Source of the DNA: a phage
Direction: 5' to 3' (one strand)
DNA length: 59,835 nucleotides
Sequence record: PZ445421.1
The notes under the pieces were generated by a model. It had not been told where the DNA came from, made no database searches, and saw only the letters and a program-made list of their open reading frames with translations. Shown here piece by piece: positions 3,269-22,753 of the stretch; position 1 is the stretch's first letter; each line of letters begins with the position of its first letter. The translations under genes were made by a program, and so were the position numbers.

Positions 3269-4147
3269 ATGAACAAATATCACATTCATCTAGCGGTAGC
3301 TTATTCCGCTGGCTTCTTCCAGTCTATGCCTCGTTTTGGTGCATTGGAACTTGAATATACTTCTGAAGATGAAATCCCGGAAAACGCGCGTGAGTATTAT
3401 TCCCAAGAAGGCGATAAGTGGATCCTCACTGGTGTAAAGGGTGGTGGCAAACAGAATATTGACAGGTTGCAATCTGCACTTGAAAAAGAACGCAACGATC
3501 ATAAAGCGGTCAAGAGTAAGCTAAGTAAGCTGAACGGACGTGATATTGACGAACTCTTGCAGCGCGACGCTGAATATGAAGAGCTTAAACTGCGTGCGGA
3601 TAAAGTTGATGATGAAAAGTTGGAGCAAATCATTAACGTACGAATCCGTAACAAGTTAACTCCGCTTGAGCGTGAACGTGACGAGCTGAAAAACAAACTT
3701 TCTACCTATGAGAAGCAAGTAGAAGAGCTGACCACAAAAGAGAAGAACCGCATCGTTAAGACCGCTCTTAGCAAGGCTGCAATGTCTGCTAAAGTGATCA
3801 CGGAAGCTATTGACGACGTGGAACTGATTGGTTCTCGTTTGTTTGAGCTCACCGAAGACGGTCAGGTTGTGACACGCGACGGTGTGGGCGTAACTCCTGG
3901 CATCACTCCAGAAATGTGGTTACAGGACATTCAAGATAAGAAACCTCACTGGTTCCCTGGAAACGTTGGCGGTGGTGCTGGTGGCTCGCGTACTCCTGGC
4001 GCTGCTGGTAAGAACCCGTGGAGTGCCGACGGTTGGAACCTTACTGAGCAGGGTAAAATTCTTCGTGAAAATCCTGAAAAAGCAGGCCGTTTGGCAGCCA
4101 TGGCTGGTGTGGACTTGAAGCGTCCAGTACGTCCAGTTAAAAAATAA
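3269..4147 (+). CDS. putative head scaffolding protein
   Basis: Track ORF 3242..4147 begins at GTG; internal ATG at 3269 has SD 'GGAG'; long charged coiled-coil-like central region and Gly-rich C-terminus, positioned between portal and major capsid genes. Confidence 0.5.
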   Translation: MNKYHIHLAVAYSAGFFQSMPRFGALELEYTSEDEIPENAREYYSQEGDKWILTGVKGGGKQNIDRLQSALEKERNDHKAVKSKLSKLNGRDIDELLQRDAEYEELKLRADKVDDEKLEQIINVRIRNKLTPLERERDELKNKLSTYEKQVEELTTKEKNRIVKTALSKAAMSAKVITEAIDDVELIGSRLFELTEDGQVVTRDGVGVTPGITPEMWLQDIQDKKPHWFPGNVGGGAGGSRTPGAAGKNPWSADGWNLTEQGKILRENPEKAGRLAAMAGVDLKRPVRPVKK

Positions 4148-15271: not shown

Positions 15272-18049
15272 ATGCCACCAGCAATAATTGGAGCCGTAGT
15301 TGCTATCGGGGCAGCGGCTGGGGCAGCGGCAGGTATTATCACAGCCACTACCGCGCTTGTGATTGGTATTGCTGCCAGTGCCGCTGGAGCTCTACTTACA
15401 AAGACTCAAAGTTTCAACTTTGATTCCTACACACCTCAGAGCGAACGTAAGCAGGTTATTCGTGCCGCTGCTGCATCTAGAACTGTGATTTATGGGACAA
15501 CTGTGTCCAGTGGTGTTCTTGTATTTGCGGAAGAGGAACCAGGAGTACAGGAACCAGATAAACATGGCGAGAACCATGAAAAGTTGACGTTGGTTCTTGC
15601 ATTAGCCGGACACGAACTAACAGAAGTAGGACAAGTGTGGTTAGGGGATGATGCTATCGAAAGTTTTGGTGATAAAGCGTCATATGTAATACATAACAAT
15701 CCTACTACCGTTAGTCGAGATATGCTGAATCGTTGCCCATCATGGAAAAGTGACATGATTGGTAAAGGTATTTGCTGGATGCAATTAAACCTTGTGTTCG
15801 ATTCTGAAAAATTCCCTTCTGGCCTACCTAACGTTAAATGCCTTAAGAAAGGTCGTAAAGTATTAGATCCTAGAACTGGTAATATGATATTTAGCAATAA
15901 CGCAGCTTTAGTCATTCTGGATTACTTGCGAGTGTACTTAAAGCGTTCTGATGATGCAATTCTTTGGGACCAGTTCAAGGAAGCTGCTAATATATGTGAT
16001 GAAAGTGTGAAGAACGCGGACAACACATTTGAACCTCGTTACACCATAAATGGTGAGTTCGATATTGACGAAGCTTCATCTAAGATCCTGGAGGATATGC
16101 TTGACTCTTGTGGTGGGGAGTTAACTTATATTGGCGGTAAACATGGTTTATTAGTTGGTGCTTATTACGGTCCACCTGAACTAACACTTGACACAAGTTG
16201 TATTGCTGGTGATATTAAAATCACACCTGAAACAGCTTTTAAAGAACGCACCAATACAATCACAGGTACTTATATAGATCCTTTGCAGAACTATCAGGAG
16301 GCAGACTTTCCTCCTGTAAGCGTTGCGGAATGGATAAAACAAGACGGGCAAGAAATCACACAAGACGTAGACTATCGTTTTGTAACAAGCCCATATCAGG
16401 CACAACGTTTGTCTAACTTAACATTGAAACGCAAACGCATTGGTCGTTCCATCGAGATACCATGTAACATGCGTGGGTATCGTTTCCGTCCAGGAATGTA
16501 TGTTTACGTTGACATTCCTAATATTGGAATGAACAAAGTAGAGATGCGTGTCATTAAGTGGCAGTTTGATCCGAAAGGTGGTGTCACTGTAACTGTACGC
16601 CAAGACTTCCCGGACTTATGGGACGATGCAATTGGCAAACCTGTAGAGCGACCAGATCTAGTGGATTTACCTACTGGTGGCGCTATGCAACCTCAGAACC
16701 TACAATATGAAGTCTTACAAATTAGCGACGTTGTACAGGGTGTTCTGTCGTGGCAAAATATAATGGCTGTAGCCTACAACAACGTAGTAATTAAGAAAGA
16801 TGGTACTACCGTATTGACGGTGCAAGTACCGGGCCAGAGCACGCGGATTACGGGGCTTATTCGCGGCGCTTATACAGCACATGTGAAAGCTGTGGCGTAT
16901 ACCGGCGCAACAAGTCCAGAAGCATATCTTGAATTTAACATTCAAGCACCTTCCGCTCCCACATCTGTTGAAGTAAAACAAGGCTACTTTGCAGTGACAC
17001 TGAAACCAAAATCTGCAGATCTAGCGAACGTTAGTACACAATATGATTTCTGGACGTCCGGTGAAACAAGACTACCATCCACCGCTGTAGACGTGGTAGA
17101 GAGACAAGCCACCCGTGCTGGTATGGGTACAACGTGGACTTCAGAAGGGTTACTTAATGACCACACTTATTACTGGTACGTGCGAGCAATCAATGCTTTT
17201 GGTTCTTCTTCATTTGTAGAGGTGGCTGCAAGATGCTTCACAGATGCTGCTGGCCTTATTCCGCAGATTGACACAGAGTTCAAAGGTACTAACACCTATA
17301 AAGAACTTATGGCTGAGATTGGAAGCGTCAGTGATGGTGTTAAGAGTTATGTGGACGACCAAATTGAGACCTCTGAAGGGCGCTTAACTCAAACAATAGA
17401 TACAGTGCAACAATCTGTAGTTCTTGTTGACGGTAAAGTGCAGCAACAAGGCGTCACAATTAATAAACAGGGGCAGTTAATAGATGCTCAAGGTAAGTTA
17501 ATCGAGACAAACGGCCGACAAATTAATGTGGTCAAAGCTACCGTACAGGAAGTCAGTAAGTCCGTTGTAGATCTTGAAGGTAAAGTCAACGCTCAGTGGG
17601 GCGCCAAGATCCAGGTGGATAGTAAAGGACAGAAATATGTTGCTGGTATTCAGTTAGGTATGGAAGGTTCCGGTGGAGCTATCCAATCTTACTTTATGGT
17701 CAACGCCAACAACTTTGCTATCTATAACCCAACTAACAGCACAGCGGATTTAGCATTTGCAGTTAAGAACGGTCAAGTGTTTATGAAGGCGACGTTCATT
17801 GAGAACGGGTCTATTGATAATGCCAAAATCGGCAACTATATCCAGTCCAACAACTATGCAGCTGGTTCTGCTGGCTGGAGGATTACCAAGGACGGAGCTT
17901 CGGAGTTTAATAATGTTATCGTCAGAGGTGAGATATATGCAGCGGTTGGCAAATTCGGATTCAACGGAAATGGAGGTATAACAATCAATAGCAACGGGAT
18001 TACGGTTCCATTGTCAGGTGGTGGTAAAGTTGTAGTTGGTAGATGGTAA
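15272..18049 (+). CDS. tail tip / host-specificity protein (J-like) with fibronectin-III-like region
   Basis: 925 aa; Gly/Ala-rich hydrophobic N-terminus; '...YYWYVRAINAFGSS...' FN3-like segment; SD 'GGAGGG'. Confidence 0.7.
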   Translation: MPPAIIGAVVAIGAAAGAAAGIITATTALVIGIAASAAGALLTKTQSFNFDSYTPQSERKQVIRAAAASRTVIYGTTVSSGVLVFAEEEPGVQEPDKHGENHEKLTLVLALAGHELTEVGQVWLGDDAIESFGDKASYVIHNNPTTVSRDMLNRCPSWKSDMIGKGICWMQLNLVFDSEKFPSGLPNVKCLKKGRKVLDPRTGNMIFSNNAALVILDYLRVYLKRSDDAILWDQFKEAANICDESVKNADNTFEPRYTINGEFDIDEASSKILEDMLDSCGGELTYIGGKHGLLVGAYYGPPELTLDTSCIAGDIKITPETAFKERTNTITGTYIDPLQNYQEADFPPVSVAEWIKQDGQEITQDVDYRFVTSPYQAQRLSNLTLKRKRIGRSIEIPCNMRGYRFRPGMYVYVDIPNIGMNKVEMRVIKWQFDPKGGVTVTVRQDFPDLWDDAIGKPVERPDLVDLPTGGAMQPQNLQYEVLQISDVVQGVLSWQNIMAVAYNNVVIKKDGTTVLTVQVPGQSTRITGLIRGAYTAHVKAVAYTGATSPEAYLEFNIQAPSAPTSVEVKQGYFAVTLKPKSADLANVSTQYDFWTSGETRLPSTAVDVVERQATRAGMGTTWTSEGLLNDHTYYWYVRAINAFGSSSFVEVAARCFTDAAGLIPQIDTEFKGTNTYKELMAEIGSVSDGVKSYVDDQIETSEGRLTQTIDTVQQSVVLVDGKVQQQGVTINKQGQLIDAQGKLIETNGRQINVVKATVQEVSKSVVDLEGKVNAQWGAKIQVDSKGQKYVAGIQLGMEGSGGAIQSYFMVNANNFAIYNPTNSTADLAFAVKNGQVFMKATFIENGSIDNAKIGNYIQSNNYAAGSAGWRITKDGASEFNNVIVRGEIYAAVGKFGFNGNGGITINSNGITVPLSGGGKVVVGRW

Positions 18050-18050
18050 A

Positions 18051-18072
18051 TTAAGGGGCGAAAGCCCCTTAA
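18051..18072. terminator. bidirectional hairpin between convergent genes
   Basis: TTAAGGGGC-gaaa-GCCCCTTAA; overlaps the stop of the minus-strand gene; weak U-tracts on both strands. Confidence 0.45.
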
Positions 18073-19034
18073 TACATATTGGGTAGTGCAATAATAGGTG
18101 TTGGGGTAACAATGTTTCTTTCAGGTGGTCGTAGTGAGGGGGAATGAAAGTTCCCTATTACCTTATTTCTTTCAGCTCGTACTTTATTTCCATACATACG
18201 AACGCCATTATATCTTACATTGTCATAACCACCATTATAAACGTTCTTCATTCCATAGAAAGCAAGTTGAATTAATCTGTCACCAATATCCTGATCACTT
18301 GTTGTTAAAGTTAGAGTTTTATCAAATAAGAACGGTTTCTTTACTGTGGAGAATGTAACTTGCCCAGCGGTATTAGTCATGGTAATACCGTCACCTGCTG
18401 CTGGTGGGGTATTATTAAATATTACCAGTTCCATTGTTACACTGGCAGCAACATCATCCCTACCAGTGTAGGTGATGTCCCGAACTATAATGTTAGTTCC
18501 ATCAAAGCCAACAGAAACGTTAGCAGAGTTCCATCTTGCAAAAGGAATGCCTGATACTGGAAGTCGCATACTTCCGTTAACTGTAACAGTACCAGCATAC
18601 TGACAAGTCATTAATTTTGCATTATTTGAAATAGCTGTAAAATCCGTAGAGTTTGACACATACAGACCTGTGTTATATGTAGAAGCAGGTAATACTTCCA
18701 TAATAGAGCCTGCCCATTGTGGAAGTTTTCCAGTATATCCAAAAGGATTAGCACCCCTTAAAATAACACCAGAGTTACCATTCCTGCTGATAGAGGAGAT
18801 ATAGAAAGGTGCAGGGACTACAAGACCCTGATCGTATACTTCGATAATTTCAACAGGTTTAGTAGGGATCACAAAAACTTCAGAGGCTTGTGTGAGGGTT
18901 GTATTAATTGTTAAAGTTTGATCAGACTGGCAACGCTGATTAAAGTTAGCACAAAAAGATAAAGCTCGCAATCCTGCTGTTATTTGCATTGCAGGTCTTC
19001 CGTCATTGTAGTTTATGTAAATACCCTCAGGCAT
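18069..19034 (-). CDS. hypothetical protein, reverse-oriented inside tail module (candidate receptor-binding/host-range protein)
   Basis: Track ORF starts at GTG 19040; ATG 19034 has SD 'GGAG'; Asn/Thr/Gly/Ser-rich, no signal peptide; own AT-rich upstream region 19035-19150. Confidence 0.6.
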   Translation of the reverse strand: MPEGIYINYNDGRPAMQITAGLRALSFCANFNQRCQSDQTLTINTTLTQASEVFVIPTKPVEIIEVYDQGLVVPAPFYISSISRNGNSGVILRGANPFGYTGKLPQWAGSIMEVLPASTYNTGLYVSNSTDFTAISNNAKLMTCQYAGTVTVNGSMRLPVSGIPFARWNSANVSVGFDGTNIIVRDITYTGRDDVAASVTMELVIFNNTPPAAGDGITMTNTAGQVTFSTVKKPFLFDKTLTLTTSDQDIGDRLIQLAFYGMKNVYNGGYDNVRYNGVRMYGNKVRAERNKVIGNFHSPSLRPPERNIVTPTPIIALPNMY

Positions 19035-19150
19035 AATCACTCCAAATAATGTGGTTAAAGACGATAGATAATATTGTTTTATATTCTAATTTAATTTACC
19101 ATATTTGTATGCCCTGAAATATCTATTAATTTTACAGATAAGAGGTAAAA

Positions 19151-22100
19151 ATGACAATTCGTCTATATGGTGTCCTGACAGATGGTTTGAATAAACCTAT
19201 TGTTAATGCAACCGTATCCTTGATAGCAAGAAGTAACACTCTTACCGTGTTAGGTGGTAGCGAAGCTGTATTTCGCACAGACGCGCAGGGTGCATATAAT
19301 ATCACAGTGAACCCAGGGCACTATGTGGTCATAGTAGGCCCTCAAGGAAAAGAACCATATAAGGCTGGAGAAATTGTCCTATATGCAGATAGTCCGGGGG
19401 GATCACTTAATGGTTATCTTGTTAATTGGGTGGAAGAAGAACTAACACCAGATGTTATCAAACAAGTTCAACAACTTATGGCTGCTTCTGAAGAATACTC
19501 TTTGCAAGCTGGCCGCTCTGCTGCGGCAGCAAACGCAGATGCTACGGATGCTCGCAATAGTAAGGCTTCAGCTGCTCAATCTGCTTCGGAAGCCCTTGTG
19601 TATAAGAATGATTCTAAAACCAATGCTGACGCTGCTAAACAAGCACAGGCTGGAGCTGCTGGGTCTGCTAACACCGCTAACGCTGCGGTAACCACAATTC
19701 AAGGTATCCAAAAGGATGTCACAGCATCCAAGGACCGTGCTGTGACTGCGGAAACTAACGCTAAATCCAGCGAGAATGTGGCTACACAAGCTAAAGAGCA
19801 AGCTGTAGCTGCTAAGAATAAAGCTCAACAGATTGCAGATTCAATAGACCCGCAGTCTATTAAAAATTCTATCGGTCTTGGGTTGGCTCCTCGAAACTGT
19901 CCGGATATCTCAGGCAATCCATCAGGATATGTTGGATTTATGCGTATTATGAGCACGGCAACAGGCTTTCCATCGGTTGCATCCGGTGAAAGCAGTCTTA
20001 CGGGGTTTATTAGTCAGGCAGATGAAACTCCATCGTATACAGGTGTATTTCAGGGATGGGCTACGCGCTCGCTTTATACTTATCGCTGGAATCCGACAAT
20101 AGGCCCACAATGGACGCGCCACGCTCGCAAAAATGAAGTGGACCGTCTTAACCAATGGAGCAGCGAAACATGGATATATAACGCTGATGAATCTATGCGC
20201 CTGGGTTTAACCGGATCAACATGGGGGTGTTACAGCGACACACAAAAAAAATGGATACCACTTGATGTTTCTCATGGTGGCACTGGCGCAAATAGCCTTG
20301 ATGACGCCAAAACTAATTTGCAAATCCCTGAGGGTGGGTTAACAAAAGCGATGACCATTAATGCACCTGGTGGTGCAGTGGATGGCAAATACTACCCTGT
20401 CATAATAGACACATCCGCAATGGAAGGTTACGGCAACCTGACATGTCCTATTGATATAAAAACAGCAGGACGTTCATCATCAGACCCGCTTAATAGCAAT
20501 ACATTTAGTGGATATTTTCGATGCGGTGGCTGGAGTGACTCCAGAGATATAGCTTGCGGCTCATTTGTTGCCTATGACAAAAATGAGCTAGGGATACTTT
20601 GCCTTAAAGTATCGCAGAAAGACTATCCGCAATATGTAGCGTTCTATATCCATAAAGCCGCTTTCCCGATATTATTGCAAACAGGCTATAAAGCACGAGT
20701 CATTGTACCAACAGAAGATTATATAATCGGCACAAGCGGCGTTAAATATAAATTTGGTGTATCAACGTCAACAGAGGGTAACGCCGAGAACGCTGTTAAA
20801 AATGCTCTCGATTTCACTGGCGGTGAAAGCGGGTTTTATAGCAACCTGCCGTTCCGGCAAGGATACGCCTATAATGTCGCATTAACAAACGGGATGGTTC
20901 TTGATAATAATTTTGTCTTAACCGCTCCAGTATTTATGAACAATGGCGAGGTTAAAGCAACAAAATCTTTCACCGCGTACGGTACGGATGTTTCAAACAG
21001 AACATTTGTTTCTCAAAGATTACAATCCGAAGGAGGTCCGGTTGTCGATCAAACTGAACTAAGGGCTGGTAACGGGAAAGGTGAAATTGTTGTCAGGGAC
21101 ATAAATAATTCAGGGAACAGCAAGTTCTTTAATTTTAACCTTGATGGTACCTTCAGTTCTTATCAGGGATTGGTTGTTCACACAGAGCAAAACTGGAGCA
21201 CTCAACATACAGAGAATGTAAATAAGTTTAAGCCAATAGCAGGGAGCGCAGGCGGTCCTGACGGAACAATGGTTGTTGGCGGGTTCCATGCTCAATTTAG
21301 CGGTAATTACGTCACACAATTCGCCGGTCGCAACTCCAAATTTTGGGCAAGAAGCTTTGAGGCTGGGGTTGATAAGGGATGGAAACGACTATTAACAGTA
21401 GACGATCTCAATTCATCTACCGATCTTGCTGTCAGGTCATTAACCACATCTAACCCGGTAAAATCTGGCGGAGGGCGGATTAATGTCCTTGGAAGCACGT
21501 CAGATTATAGCAAAATGGATTGCTTTGTAAGTGGGTTTGATAGCACCGGTAATTCTCTCGCGTGGGCGTTGGGTTCATCAGTCGGCGTAAGTAAGATGCT
21601 GTCGCTAAAAAATTTCTTTAGCGGAGCTGAGATACTGTTAAATGGCAGTGATGAAGCAGTTCAACTAAAAACAGGTACTGTTGGTGGAGCCGCTGCGCAA
21701 GCAATTACTATAAATAAAGATGAAGTTTATTCAACTGTCAATTTTTCTATTACAAAAGGAGGTAAACGACTCTCTATAGAGAACAGTGCCAACTCGGAAT
21801 TATCGTTTAATATGAGGATATGGGGTTCCAGCACTCGTCAAAACGTTTTTGAGGTAGGCACGTCTGCCTCCTATCTGTTCTATGCTCAAAGAACATCACA
21901 GGGGCAACTGTTTGATGTAAACGGTAATATTAACTGTGTGACACTTAACCAATCTTCGGACCGTAGACTTAAAGACAATATCACTGTTATTGCTGACGCA
22001 ACAGGTGCTATCCGCAAGATTAATGGATATACTTACACCCTGAAAGATGGTGGTTCTAATAAGGCTGGCGTTATTGCTCAAGAAGTCATGGAAGCATTGC

Positions 22101-22333
22101 CCCAGGCTGTAGGTTCATTTATCCGATACGGCCAAGAGCTTCCAGGTCCAACAGCAGATGGGAACCGCTTGCGTGAGGAGGAACCATATCTTAACGTTGA
22201 CTATTCTGCGCTTACTGGTCTTCTTGTTCAGTTTGCTCGTGAGTCGGATGATCGTATTACGAAGCTTGAAACGGAAATCGAGGAACTTAAAAAGTTAGTC
22301 GCTACGCTTGTTAATAAAGAAACTCTACCTTAA
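19151..22333 (+). CDS. tail fibre protein with C-terminal intramolecular chaperone (peptidase S74-like) domain
   Basis: 1060 aa; Ala-rich N-proximal region; C-terminal '...SSDRRLKDNITVIADATGAIRKINGYTYTLKDG...GVIAQEVMEALPQAV' matches the auto-cleaving chaperone domain signature (from ~21956). Confidence 0.8.
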   Translation: MTIRLYGVLTDGLNKPIVNATVSLIARSNTLTVLGGSEAVFRTDAQGAYNITVNPGHYVVIVGPQGKEPYKAGEIVLYADSPGGSLNGYLVNWVEEELTPDVIKQVQQLMAASEEYSLQAGRSAAAANADATDARNSKASAAQSASEALVYKNDSKTNADAAKQAQAGAAGSANTANAAVTTIQGIQKDVTASKDRAVTAETNAKSSENVATQAKEQAVAAKNKAQQIADSIDPQSIKNSIGLGLAPRNCPDISGNPSGYVGFMRIMSTATGFPSVASGESSLTGFISQADETPSYTGVFQGWATRSLYTYRWNPTIGPQWTRHARKNEVDRLNQWSSETWIYNADESMRLGLTGSTWGCYSDTQKKWIPLDVSHGGTGANSLDDAKTNLQIPEGGLTKAMTINAPGGAVDGKYYPVIIDTSAMEGYGNLTCPIDIKTAGRSSSDPLNSNTFSGYFRCGGWSDSRDIACGSFVAYDKNELGILCLKVSQKDYPQYVAFYIHKAAFPILLQTGYKARVIVPTEDYIIGTSGVKYKFGVSTSTEGNAENAVKNALDFTGGESGFYSNLPFRQGYAYNVALTNGMVLDNNFVLTAPVFMNNGEVKATKSFTAYGTDVSNRTFVSQRLQSEGGPVVDQTELRAGNGKGEIVVRDINNSGNSKFFNFNLDGTFSSYQGLVVHTEQNWSTQHTENVNKFKPIAGSAGGPDGTMVVGGFHAQFSGNYVTQFAGRNSKFWARSFEAGVDKGWKRLLTVDDLNSSTDLAVRSLTTSNPVKSGGGRINVLGSTSDYSKMDCFVSGFDSTGNSLAWALGSSVGVSKMLSLKNFFSGAEILLNGSDEAVQLKTGTVGGAAAQAITINKDEVYSTVNFSITKGGKRLSIENSANSELSFNMRIWGSSTRQNVFEVGTSASYLFYAQRTSQGQLFDVNGNINCVTLNQSSDRRLKDNITVIADATGAIRKINGYTYTLKDGGSNKAGVIAQEVMEALPQAVGSFIRYGQELPGPTADGNRLREEEPYLNVDYSALTGLLVQFARESDDRITKLETEIEELKKLVATLVNKETLP

Positions 22334-22377: not shown

Positions 22378-22504
22378 GACTGCCAATCCCAATTTACAAA
22401 ATCTTTACATTTGGATCATTGTAAAAAGCATGTTAAGGGATATGCTTTATTTCGTAACCAGTTGGTTACATCCGCTTAACAAATCCATATATGGAGATTT
22501 TCCT

Positions 22505-22753
22505 ATGTCTGACATGACTCTTTTACCTACTAATCTCGGTGGCGACGGTTTCGGCGGTGAAGCTGGTGCGGCTGGTATTGGTTCCTGGATCGGCGGCTTA
22601 ATTGGTTCCTGGATCGGAAATGGTTGGGGTGGTGGTTGGGCATCCAAGAATCAAATAAGAAACAAGAAAAGAAGAATAAGTAGAGACAACGTACGGCATT
22701 TTGGGGCATTTTATTGTGGGCCAGTACAAATGTATTGGCCCACATTTTATTAA
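22505..22753 (+). CDS. small Gly/Trp-rich glycine-zipper protein (82 aa)
   Basis: Track ORF 22376..22753 starts at TTG inside the terminator T-run; ATG 22505 has SD 'GGAG'; sequence MSDMTLLPTNLGG|DGFGGEAGAAGIGSWIGGLIGSWIGNGWGGGW... then basic tail. Confidence 0.5.
   Translation: MSDMTLLPTNLGGDGFGGEAGAAGIGSWIGGLIGSWIGNGWGGGWASKNQIRNKKRRISRDNVRHFGAFYCGPVQMYWPTFY

Follow-up and report, generated by a model that had tools for sequence, protein, structure and literature searches.

A reversed gene behind the tail-tip gene J of Escherichia phage FritzHoffmann as a very probable LptD receptor-binding protein gene in a putatively exchangeable host-range cassette

Gene order and signals at the locus

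The window, that is, the whole stretch of 59,835 nucleotides analysed here, corresponds to practically the entire 59,834-bp record of Escherichia phage FritzHoffmann (MZ501068.1; BASEL Bas20; Nonagvirus, Queuovirinae), and bases 17000-20500 showed a 100% match to it; subtracting 520 from a coordinate of that record gives the window coordinate. Between the genes for the tail tip and the lateral tail fibre, the following features were recorded:

17941-18049, plus strand: 3' end of the J-like tail-tip gene (whole gene 15272-18049), with the C-terminal motif ...GKFGFNGNGGITINSNGITVPLSGGGKVVVGRW; left edge of the putative exchangeable cassette
18050-18073, no strand assigned: GC-rich hairpin with a 10-bp stem, ATTAAGGGGC-GAAA-GCCCCTTAAT, between the convergent J and receptor-binding protein (RBP) genes
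18069..19034, minus strand: RBP gene bas20_0020, 321 aa, DUF6453, ATG start, stop included; the GenBank CDS is identical
19035-19150, no strand assigned: divergent AT-rich intergenic region of 116 bp, 23.3% GC against 43.5% for the whole window
19041-19044, minus strand: Shine-Dalgarno GGAG of bas20_0020, 6 nt before the ATG at 19034, read from the sequence
19151..22333, plus strand: lateral tail fibre gene with the domains phage_tail_N and Peptidase_S74; right edge of the putative cassette, where the backbone resumes

The first-pass annotation had described a 321-aa minus-strand ORF that interrupts a rightward structural operon, with a hairpin on one side and an AT-rich region of about 115 bp on the other, and this layout was borne out in each of its parts. 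All other gene-like long ORFs within positions 1-22753 lie on the plus strand, leaving bas20_0020 as the sole reversed gene of the structural block. Its product is named "hypothetical protein" in GenBank. The ORF is a genuine gene and did not arise by chance, since the protein matches Pfam DUF6453 over its full length (E = 1.3e-123, 412 bits, cut-off 25). An alternative GTG start at 19040 would yield 323 aa, but the spacing of the Shine-Dalgarno sequence favours the ATG and the 321-aa product. The GC content of this ORF is 38.6%, compared with about 44% in the neighbouring genes. Downstream of the lateral fibre gene, and before a convergent DNA polymerase gene, lies bas20_0022 (22430-22753, plus strand), which encodes a small Gly-rich protein (GIGSWIGGLIGSWIGNGWGGGW) with no match in Pfam; it matches only the first 50 of the 234 positions of PHROG 9288 and may be a truncated remnant.

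The hairpin begins directly after the J stop codon (18047-18049) and includes the RBP stop codon (18069-18071), so that it fills the 19 nt between the two stops, and its predicted stability is -16.8 kcal/mol on the plus strand and -15.4 kcal/mol on the minus strand. A scan for consensus terminators did not call it, because it is not followed by a U-run. At the same convergent junction, 10 related loci have GC-rich hairpins of -17 to -22 kcal/mol with other stem sequences, and the depositors of the phage SA80RD record annotated a bidirectional rho-independent terminator at the corresponding position. Since it is stable and conserved in position, we retain the hairpin at 18050-18073 as a probable bidirectional terminator or 3'-end stabiliser.

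The intergenic region on the other side, which is 100% identical over its full 116 bp in ChristophMerian, SE1 and SP8, probably holds the promoter or promoters of the RBP gene, the lateral fibre gene, or both. A minus-strand sigma-70-like promoter match (TTGTCA-17-TAAAAT) is located at 19157..19129. A non-coding block at 19049-19111 (about 65 bp) scarcely differs in Seuratvirus relatives, in which the flanking DNA shows about 75% identity to FritzHoffmann; its 35-mer at 19077-19111 is exact in seven loci, and the SA80RD depositors annotated a plus-strand sigma-70-like promoter within it. No more than 12 phage records contained the block, all from Queuovirinae and all among the matches to the RBP-to-fibre region of the window; an Rfam scan of 17500-19700 at E <= 1 gave no match. 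Across Nonagvirus and Seuratvirus taken together, the block likewise hardly varies, in surroundings of only about 75-92% identity. Its role may be to regulate specifically the divergent RBP and fibre genes, and it is plausible that the hairpin ends both convergent transcripts while the AT-rich block drives divergent transcription.

A 22-codon plus-strand micro-ORF at 19049-19117 (MWLKTIDNIVLYSNLIYHICMP), which falls on the conserved block and is open in relatives, was considered and dismissed as coding, the overlap being judged coincidental. It lacks a Shine-Dalgarno sequence, such an open frame is estimated to arise by chance in AT-rich DNA at about 0.1 per frame, and within a 42-nt core (19070-19111) no codon position varies, a pattern that indicates constraint at the nucleotide level.

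The encoded protein and its receptor

DUF6453 is the only Pfam match of the 321-aa protein, and NCBIfam has no model for it. In the PDB, phmmer matched a single protein, chain C of 9RPT (also 9RPW and 9RQI), with E = 2.7e-132 and residues 2-321 aligned on 2-321; this is the RBP of phage Oekolampad (Bas18), to which 202 of 320 positions are identical (63.1%) without a gap. The homology search proposed in the first-pass annotation thus led to DUF6453 and to an LptD RBP, in agreement with the suggestion made there of a beta-rich adhesin or receptor-binding module. The composition on which that suggestion had been based was also confirmed: Asn, Thr, Ser and Gly together account for 33.3% of its residues, compared with 23.6 +/- 4.6% in 43 ORFs of at least 150 aa, and neither a signal peptide nor a lipobox nor a transmembrane segment was found in it (maximum Kyte-Doolittle 19-residue average, 0.97). 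A single-sequence AlphaFold2 model of the protein was unusable (pLDDT 30.9, pTM 0.18); the fold, comprising two lectin-like beta-sandwiches, is implied by the 63% gapless identity to a solved chain together with a published AlphaFold2 model. That model treats the FritzHoffmann protein as an LptD RBP and gives it a double lectin-like beta-sandwich; superposition on other LptD RBPs leaves a deviation of about 1 Angstrom, with an RMSD of 1.04 Angstrom to the OzMSK RBP (Black et al., PMC13035648).

Entries 9RPT, 9RPW and 9RQI are cryo-EM structures in which the Oekolampad RBP is bound to Shigella flexneri LptDE (Dunbar et al., PNAS 2025, PMC12685063). In these complexes the RBP reaches deep into the LptD lumen from the extracellular side, the contact area is about 1,700 square Angstroms and the translocon is in an open state; furthermore, LptD resistance mutations are reported to abolish binding of the RBP in vitro (PMC12685063). 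For FritzHoffmann itself the evidence is genetic. Mutants resistant to seven small siphoviruses, FritzHoffmann included, carry lptD mutations, and two lptD deletion alleles completely block all seven, with LPS-targeting control phages unaffected; these LptD-dependent siphoviruses have a common "bona fide RBP locus" downstream of gpJ (Maffei et al., PMC8594841). More recently, a preprint covering 255 phages associated the DUF6453 RBP family specifically with LptD (10.64898/2026.04.02.716166). On the basis of homology to a solved complex and of the published genetics of the phage, the identification of the FritzHoffmann protein as an LptD-binding RBP is strongly supported. Insertion of RBP loops into the LptD lumen was demonstrated for the Oekolampad homologue, and by analogy we infer the same for FritzHoffmann.

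Among homologues, conservation is highest at residues 1-30, 121-135 and 196-240, and residues 31-45, 91-105, 241-255 and 286-315 are variable. The conserved N-terminus and the variable segments agree with the published view that the N-terminal base faces the tail and that variable loops touch the receptor (PMC13035648). Compared with Oekolampad, the least similar segment comprises residues 282-301 (9 of 20 identical), and it includes the position at which Gln299 of Oekolampad, which hydrogen-bonds LptD Ser350 in the solved complex (PMC12685063), is replaced by Pro in FritzHoffmann.

On the tail side, J has the Pfam domains Phage_Tail_Tip and Ig_J_second and ends in ...GGGKVVVGRW, and the same motif was present in every DUF6453 locus with an adjacent J ORF identified. 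The consensus of these J ends is ...G.F.F.G....I...G..V.L..GG.V.VG.W, with the terminal form GGG[KR][VI]V[VL]G.W, and the J ends of JenP1, CAjan and 9g, which have other cassettes at this site, differ from it. The RBP gene adjoins the J 3' end in all related loci examined. Since the J motif and the conserved RBP N-terminus are co-inherited, we infer that the latter docks on the former, which would make the motif a candidate docking site. A search of the literature for virion proteomics or a tail-tip structure locating the DUF6453 family on the particle found none. An extended form of the motif, GFNGNGGITI.SNGI.VPL.GGG.V.VGRW (window 17941-18046; positions 3890-3992 of the sampled locus L017; other loci), occurs in virulent and temperate phages of several lineages.

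Taken as a whole, the best explanation of the locus, in which we have high confidence, is that the reversed gene encodes a dedicated terminal LptD-binding RBP carried on the tip of J, within an exchangeable host-range cassette. The protein would be soluble, beta-rich and of about 35 kDa, would be produced late alongside the tail proteins, and would be held by non-covalent contacts at the C-terminal end of the J-like central fibre. During infection, the lateral fibres would first touch surface glycans reversibly, and the variable loops at the far end of the RBP would then enter the extracellular lumen of the barrel of LptD, part of the LptDE lipopolysaccharide translocon, an insertion that would commit the phage to DNA injection.

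The LptD RBP function of bas20_0020 is already known from the literature, and database annotations lag behind it. The family is labelled "membrane protein" and placed in the moron category in PHROG 1265, a label that, like the product name of bas20_0020, clashes with the structural evidence and should read LptD-binding RBP. Since LptD is essential and conserved, phages that use it are of interest for phage therapy and for phage-resistant production strains, as has already been noted in print. Small refinements from the present analysis concern where the cassette begins and ends, the candidate docking motif of J, the inversion seen in particular lineages and the absence of an exclusion gene in Queuovirinae; they could guide engineering by RBP swaps.

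Exchange and orientation of the cassette

The first-pass annotation had also regarded the locus as an independently acquired host-range cassette, and comparison among related phages, which it had proposed, supports this view through clear recombination boundaries and an RBP relatedness that does not follow taxonomy. Against 9g, the closest backbone relative, DNA identity is 92% through J up to 17940 (codon ~890), ceases there and picks up again at 19151 with the start codon of the fibre gene; considering 9g, CAjan and JenP1 together, homology returns at 19140-19151. In the other Queuovirinae examined, the same site between the J 3' end and the fibre gene is occupied by one reversed lipoprotein gene, together with a longer J (9g and CAjan), or by two reversed genes (JenP1). 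An RBP gene 5' end in common with the otherwise unrelated JenP1 cassette was considered and ruled out, since homology to JenP1 begins only at 19140; the match to SE1 is explained by the presence of the same gene in SE1, where it spans the origin of the record.

With respect to the RBP itself, FritzHoffmann (Nonagvirus) is 85% identical to VogelGryff (Seuratvirus) and 67% identical to ChristophMerian, another Nonagvirus; the ChristophMerian RBP is closest to that of slur06, a Dhillonvirus (76%), and two Dhillonvirus RBPs share only 33% identity with each other. As judged from these comparisons, the cassette appears to be mobile, with RBP relatedness cutting across phage taxonomy, and independent acquisition is supported by these identities together with the lower GC content of the ORF. 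Frequent horizontal transfer of the RBP locus is a published conclusion (PMC8594841). The exchangeable unit would consist of the RBP gene, the last ~36 J codons, the terminator hairpin between the convergent genes and the regulatory stretch upstream of the RBP gene, and would travel among Nonagvirus, Seuratvirus, Dhillonvirus, Drexlerviridae and temperate enterobacterial phages.

The placement of the gene had been called moron-like, which proved misleading, because in most relatives it is an ordinary tail gene located right after J and in the same direction. The RBP gene is inverted, and hence convergent with J, in Queuovirinae, Dhillonvirus, Rogunavirus and Tunavirus, and it follows J directly in the same direction in the temperate Salmonella phage Oslo, the Klebsiella Webervirus NJS2 and the Dickeya phage Sucellus, in the last of which the J and RBP coding sequences overlap. 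In 82 of 88 sampled loci from IMG/VR and bacterial genomes, mostly prophages and dominated by close relatives (58% identity class) from isolate-genome records, the homologue was co-directional and immediately after J. Given this proportion, the reversed orientation is a lineage-specific layout of these virulent small siphoviruses and does not point to a non-structural moron. In prophages of Salmonella, Citrobacter and other Enterobacteriaceae, as well as in Webervirus and Sucellus, the co-directional gene starts no more than a few bases from the J stop.

Competing readings and the missing exclusion gene

Several readings other than a terminal LptD RBP deserve to be weighed. The gene could encode a moron or host-takeover membrane protein, or a superinfection-exclusion factor, expressed apart from the virion genes and acting in the cell, as might be suspected from its reversed orientation, its own AT-rich upstream region and its terminator hairpin, from the moron category of PHROG 1265, and from the reversed cassettes of 9g and CAjan at this site, each a single small lipoprotein gene. 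However, the PHROG label is automated, the protein has none of the signal peptide, lipobox or transmembrane segment that such a role would suggest, and it is 63% identical to a protein structurally located on the extracellular face of LptD. The co-directional position in 82 of the 88 sampled loci and the overlapping coding sequences of Sucellus also argue against it, and the known exclusion factor is a different protein, the lipoprotein Rtp45 of about 6 kDa; we therefore grant this reading a very slim chance. An assembly factor or adaptor for the J tip that makes no receptor contact would account for the co-variation of the conserved RBP N-terminus with the J C-terminus, yet the Oekolampad homologue on its own binds LptDE through its 1,700 square-Angstrom interface, and the LptD resistance mutations described in PMC12685063 abolish that binding in vitro, so that this reading appears the least probable of all.

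A further reading keeps the DUF6453 fold and the RBP role, and supposes that diverged tip loops recognise another or an additional terminal receptor, with LptD dependence indirect or partial. The predicted contact loops are indeed the least conserved parts of the protein, LptD RBPs fall into three loop classes with possibly different binding modes (Black et al., PMC13035648), and Bas01 requires both NupG and LptD (10.64898/2026.04.02.716166). Nevertheless, the dual need of Bas01 was ascribed in the same preprint to the C-terminal domain of J and not to the DUF6453 protein, the family is LptD-associated across the 255 phages, and bacteria with either lptD allele are fully resistant to FritzHoffmann while the LPS-targeting controls are unaffected. 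We consider this reading improbable.

Three known systems come closest. The LptDE-binding RBPs of Oekolampad and Rtp (Rtp44) belong to the same Pfam family, have the same length and share the position next to the J 3' end, the J motif and LptD as the receptor identified by genetics, whereas FritzHoffmann differs from them in its diverged C-terminal loop region, in having no upstream lipoprotein gene of the Rtp45/SEOeko type and in having the non-coding block confined to Queuovirinae. With T5 pb5, the RBP for FhuA, it shares the principle that one dedicated RBP, located on the central-fibre tip, uses its loops to bind an outer-membrane beta-barrel, and the tail-proximal end of the RBP is poorly ordered in both the T5 and the Oekolampad complexes; however, the receptor differs and no similarity to pb5 was found, 9RPT being the only PDB match and DUF6453 the only Pfam match. 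Lambda-type J proteins with a C-terminal receptor-binding domain (9g, CAjan and small siphoviruses targeting TolC or LamB) represent the same tail-tip backbone protein at the same locus, but J has 925 aa in FritzHoffmann and 1029 aa in 9g, and in the former a docking motif would replace the binding domain, with a separate protein recognising the receptor.

Exclusion had been offered in the first-pass annotation as an alternative to host range, and this part did not hold, since exclusion belongs to a separate small lipoprotein of the Rtp45 type that FritzHoffmann lacks. In C119, slur06, Shfl1 and phiEco273 (Drexlerviridae, Dhillonvirus), the gene next upstream of the RBP gene encodes a small lipoprotein and reads in the same direction. 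Rtp45 of phage Rtp, a superinfection-exclusion lipoprotein, attaches to LptD from the periplasm and prevents the RBP from binding by steric hindrance; such steric displacement differs from the allosteric action of Llp of T5. In FritzHoffmann, ChristophMerian and VogelGryff, the RBP gene stands alone, with no upstream lipoprotein gene. Neither tblastn nor an HMM built from four lipoproteins and run on the six-frame translation (best E 0.42) found an Rtp45-like lipoprotein in the whole FritzHoffmann genome, and a lipobox regular-expression scan of the genome gave no credible ORF.

A tentative reading, which we consider less likely than not, is that the LptD-targeting Queuovirinae (FritzHoffmann, ChristophMerian, VogelGryff, SE1 and relatives) carry a stripped-down cassette of RBP gene and conserved block, and may either lack superinfection exclusion at the level of the receptor or encode an unrelated factor that escaped recognition. 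Exclusion might be dispensable if the RBP recognises LptDE solely in its open, active state, which is rare. Two modest loose ends are left at the locus, namely the lack of an exclusion gene and the conserved non-coding block.

Homologues of the RBP were detected by tblastn in 342 phage records. One record names the homologue "exonuclease" or "host specificity protein J". Homologues also appear in records assigned to improbable hosts, namely "Campylobacter phage A120" (80% identity), "Pseudomonas phage PsgS01F", a Nitratidesulfovibrio contig and tiny contigs of Dyella and Geodermatophilus; all of these most likely reflect host misassignment or coliphage contamination.
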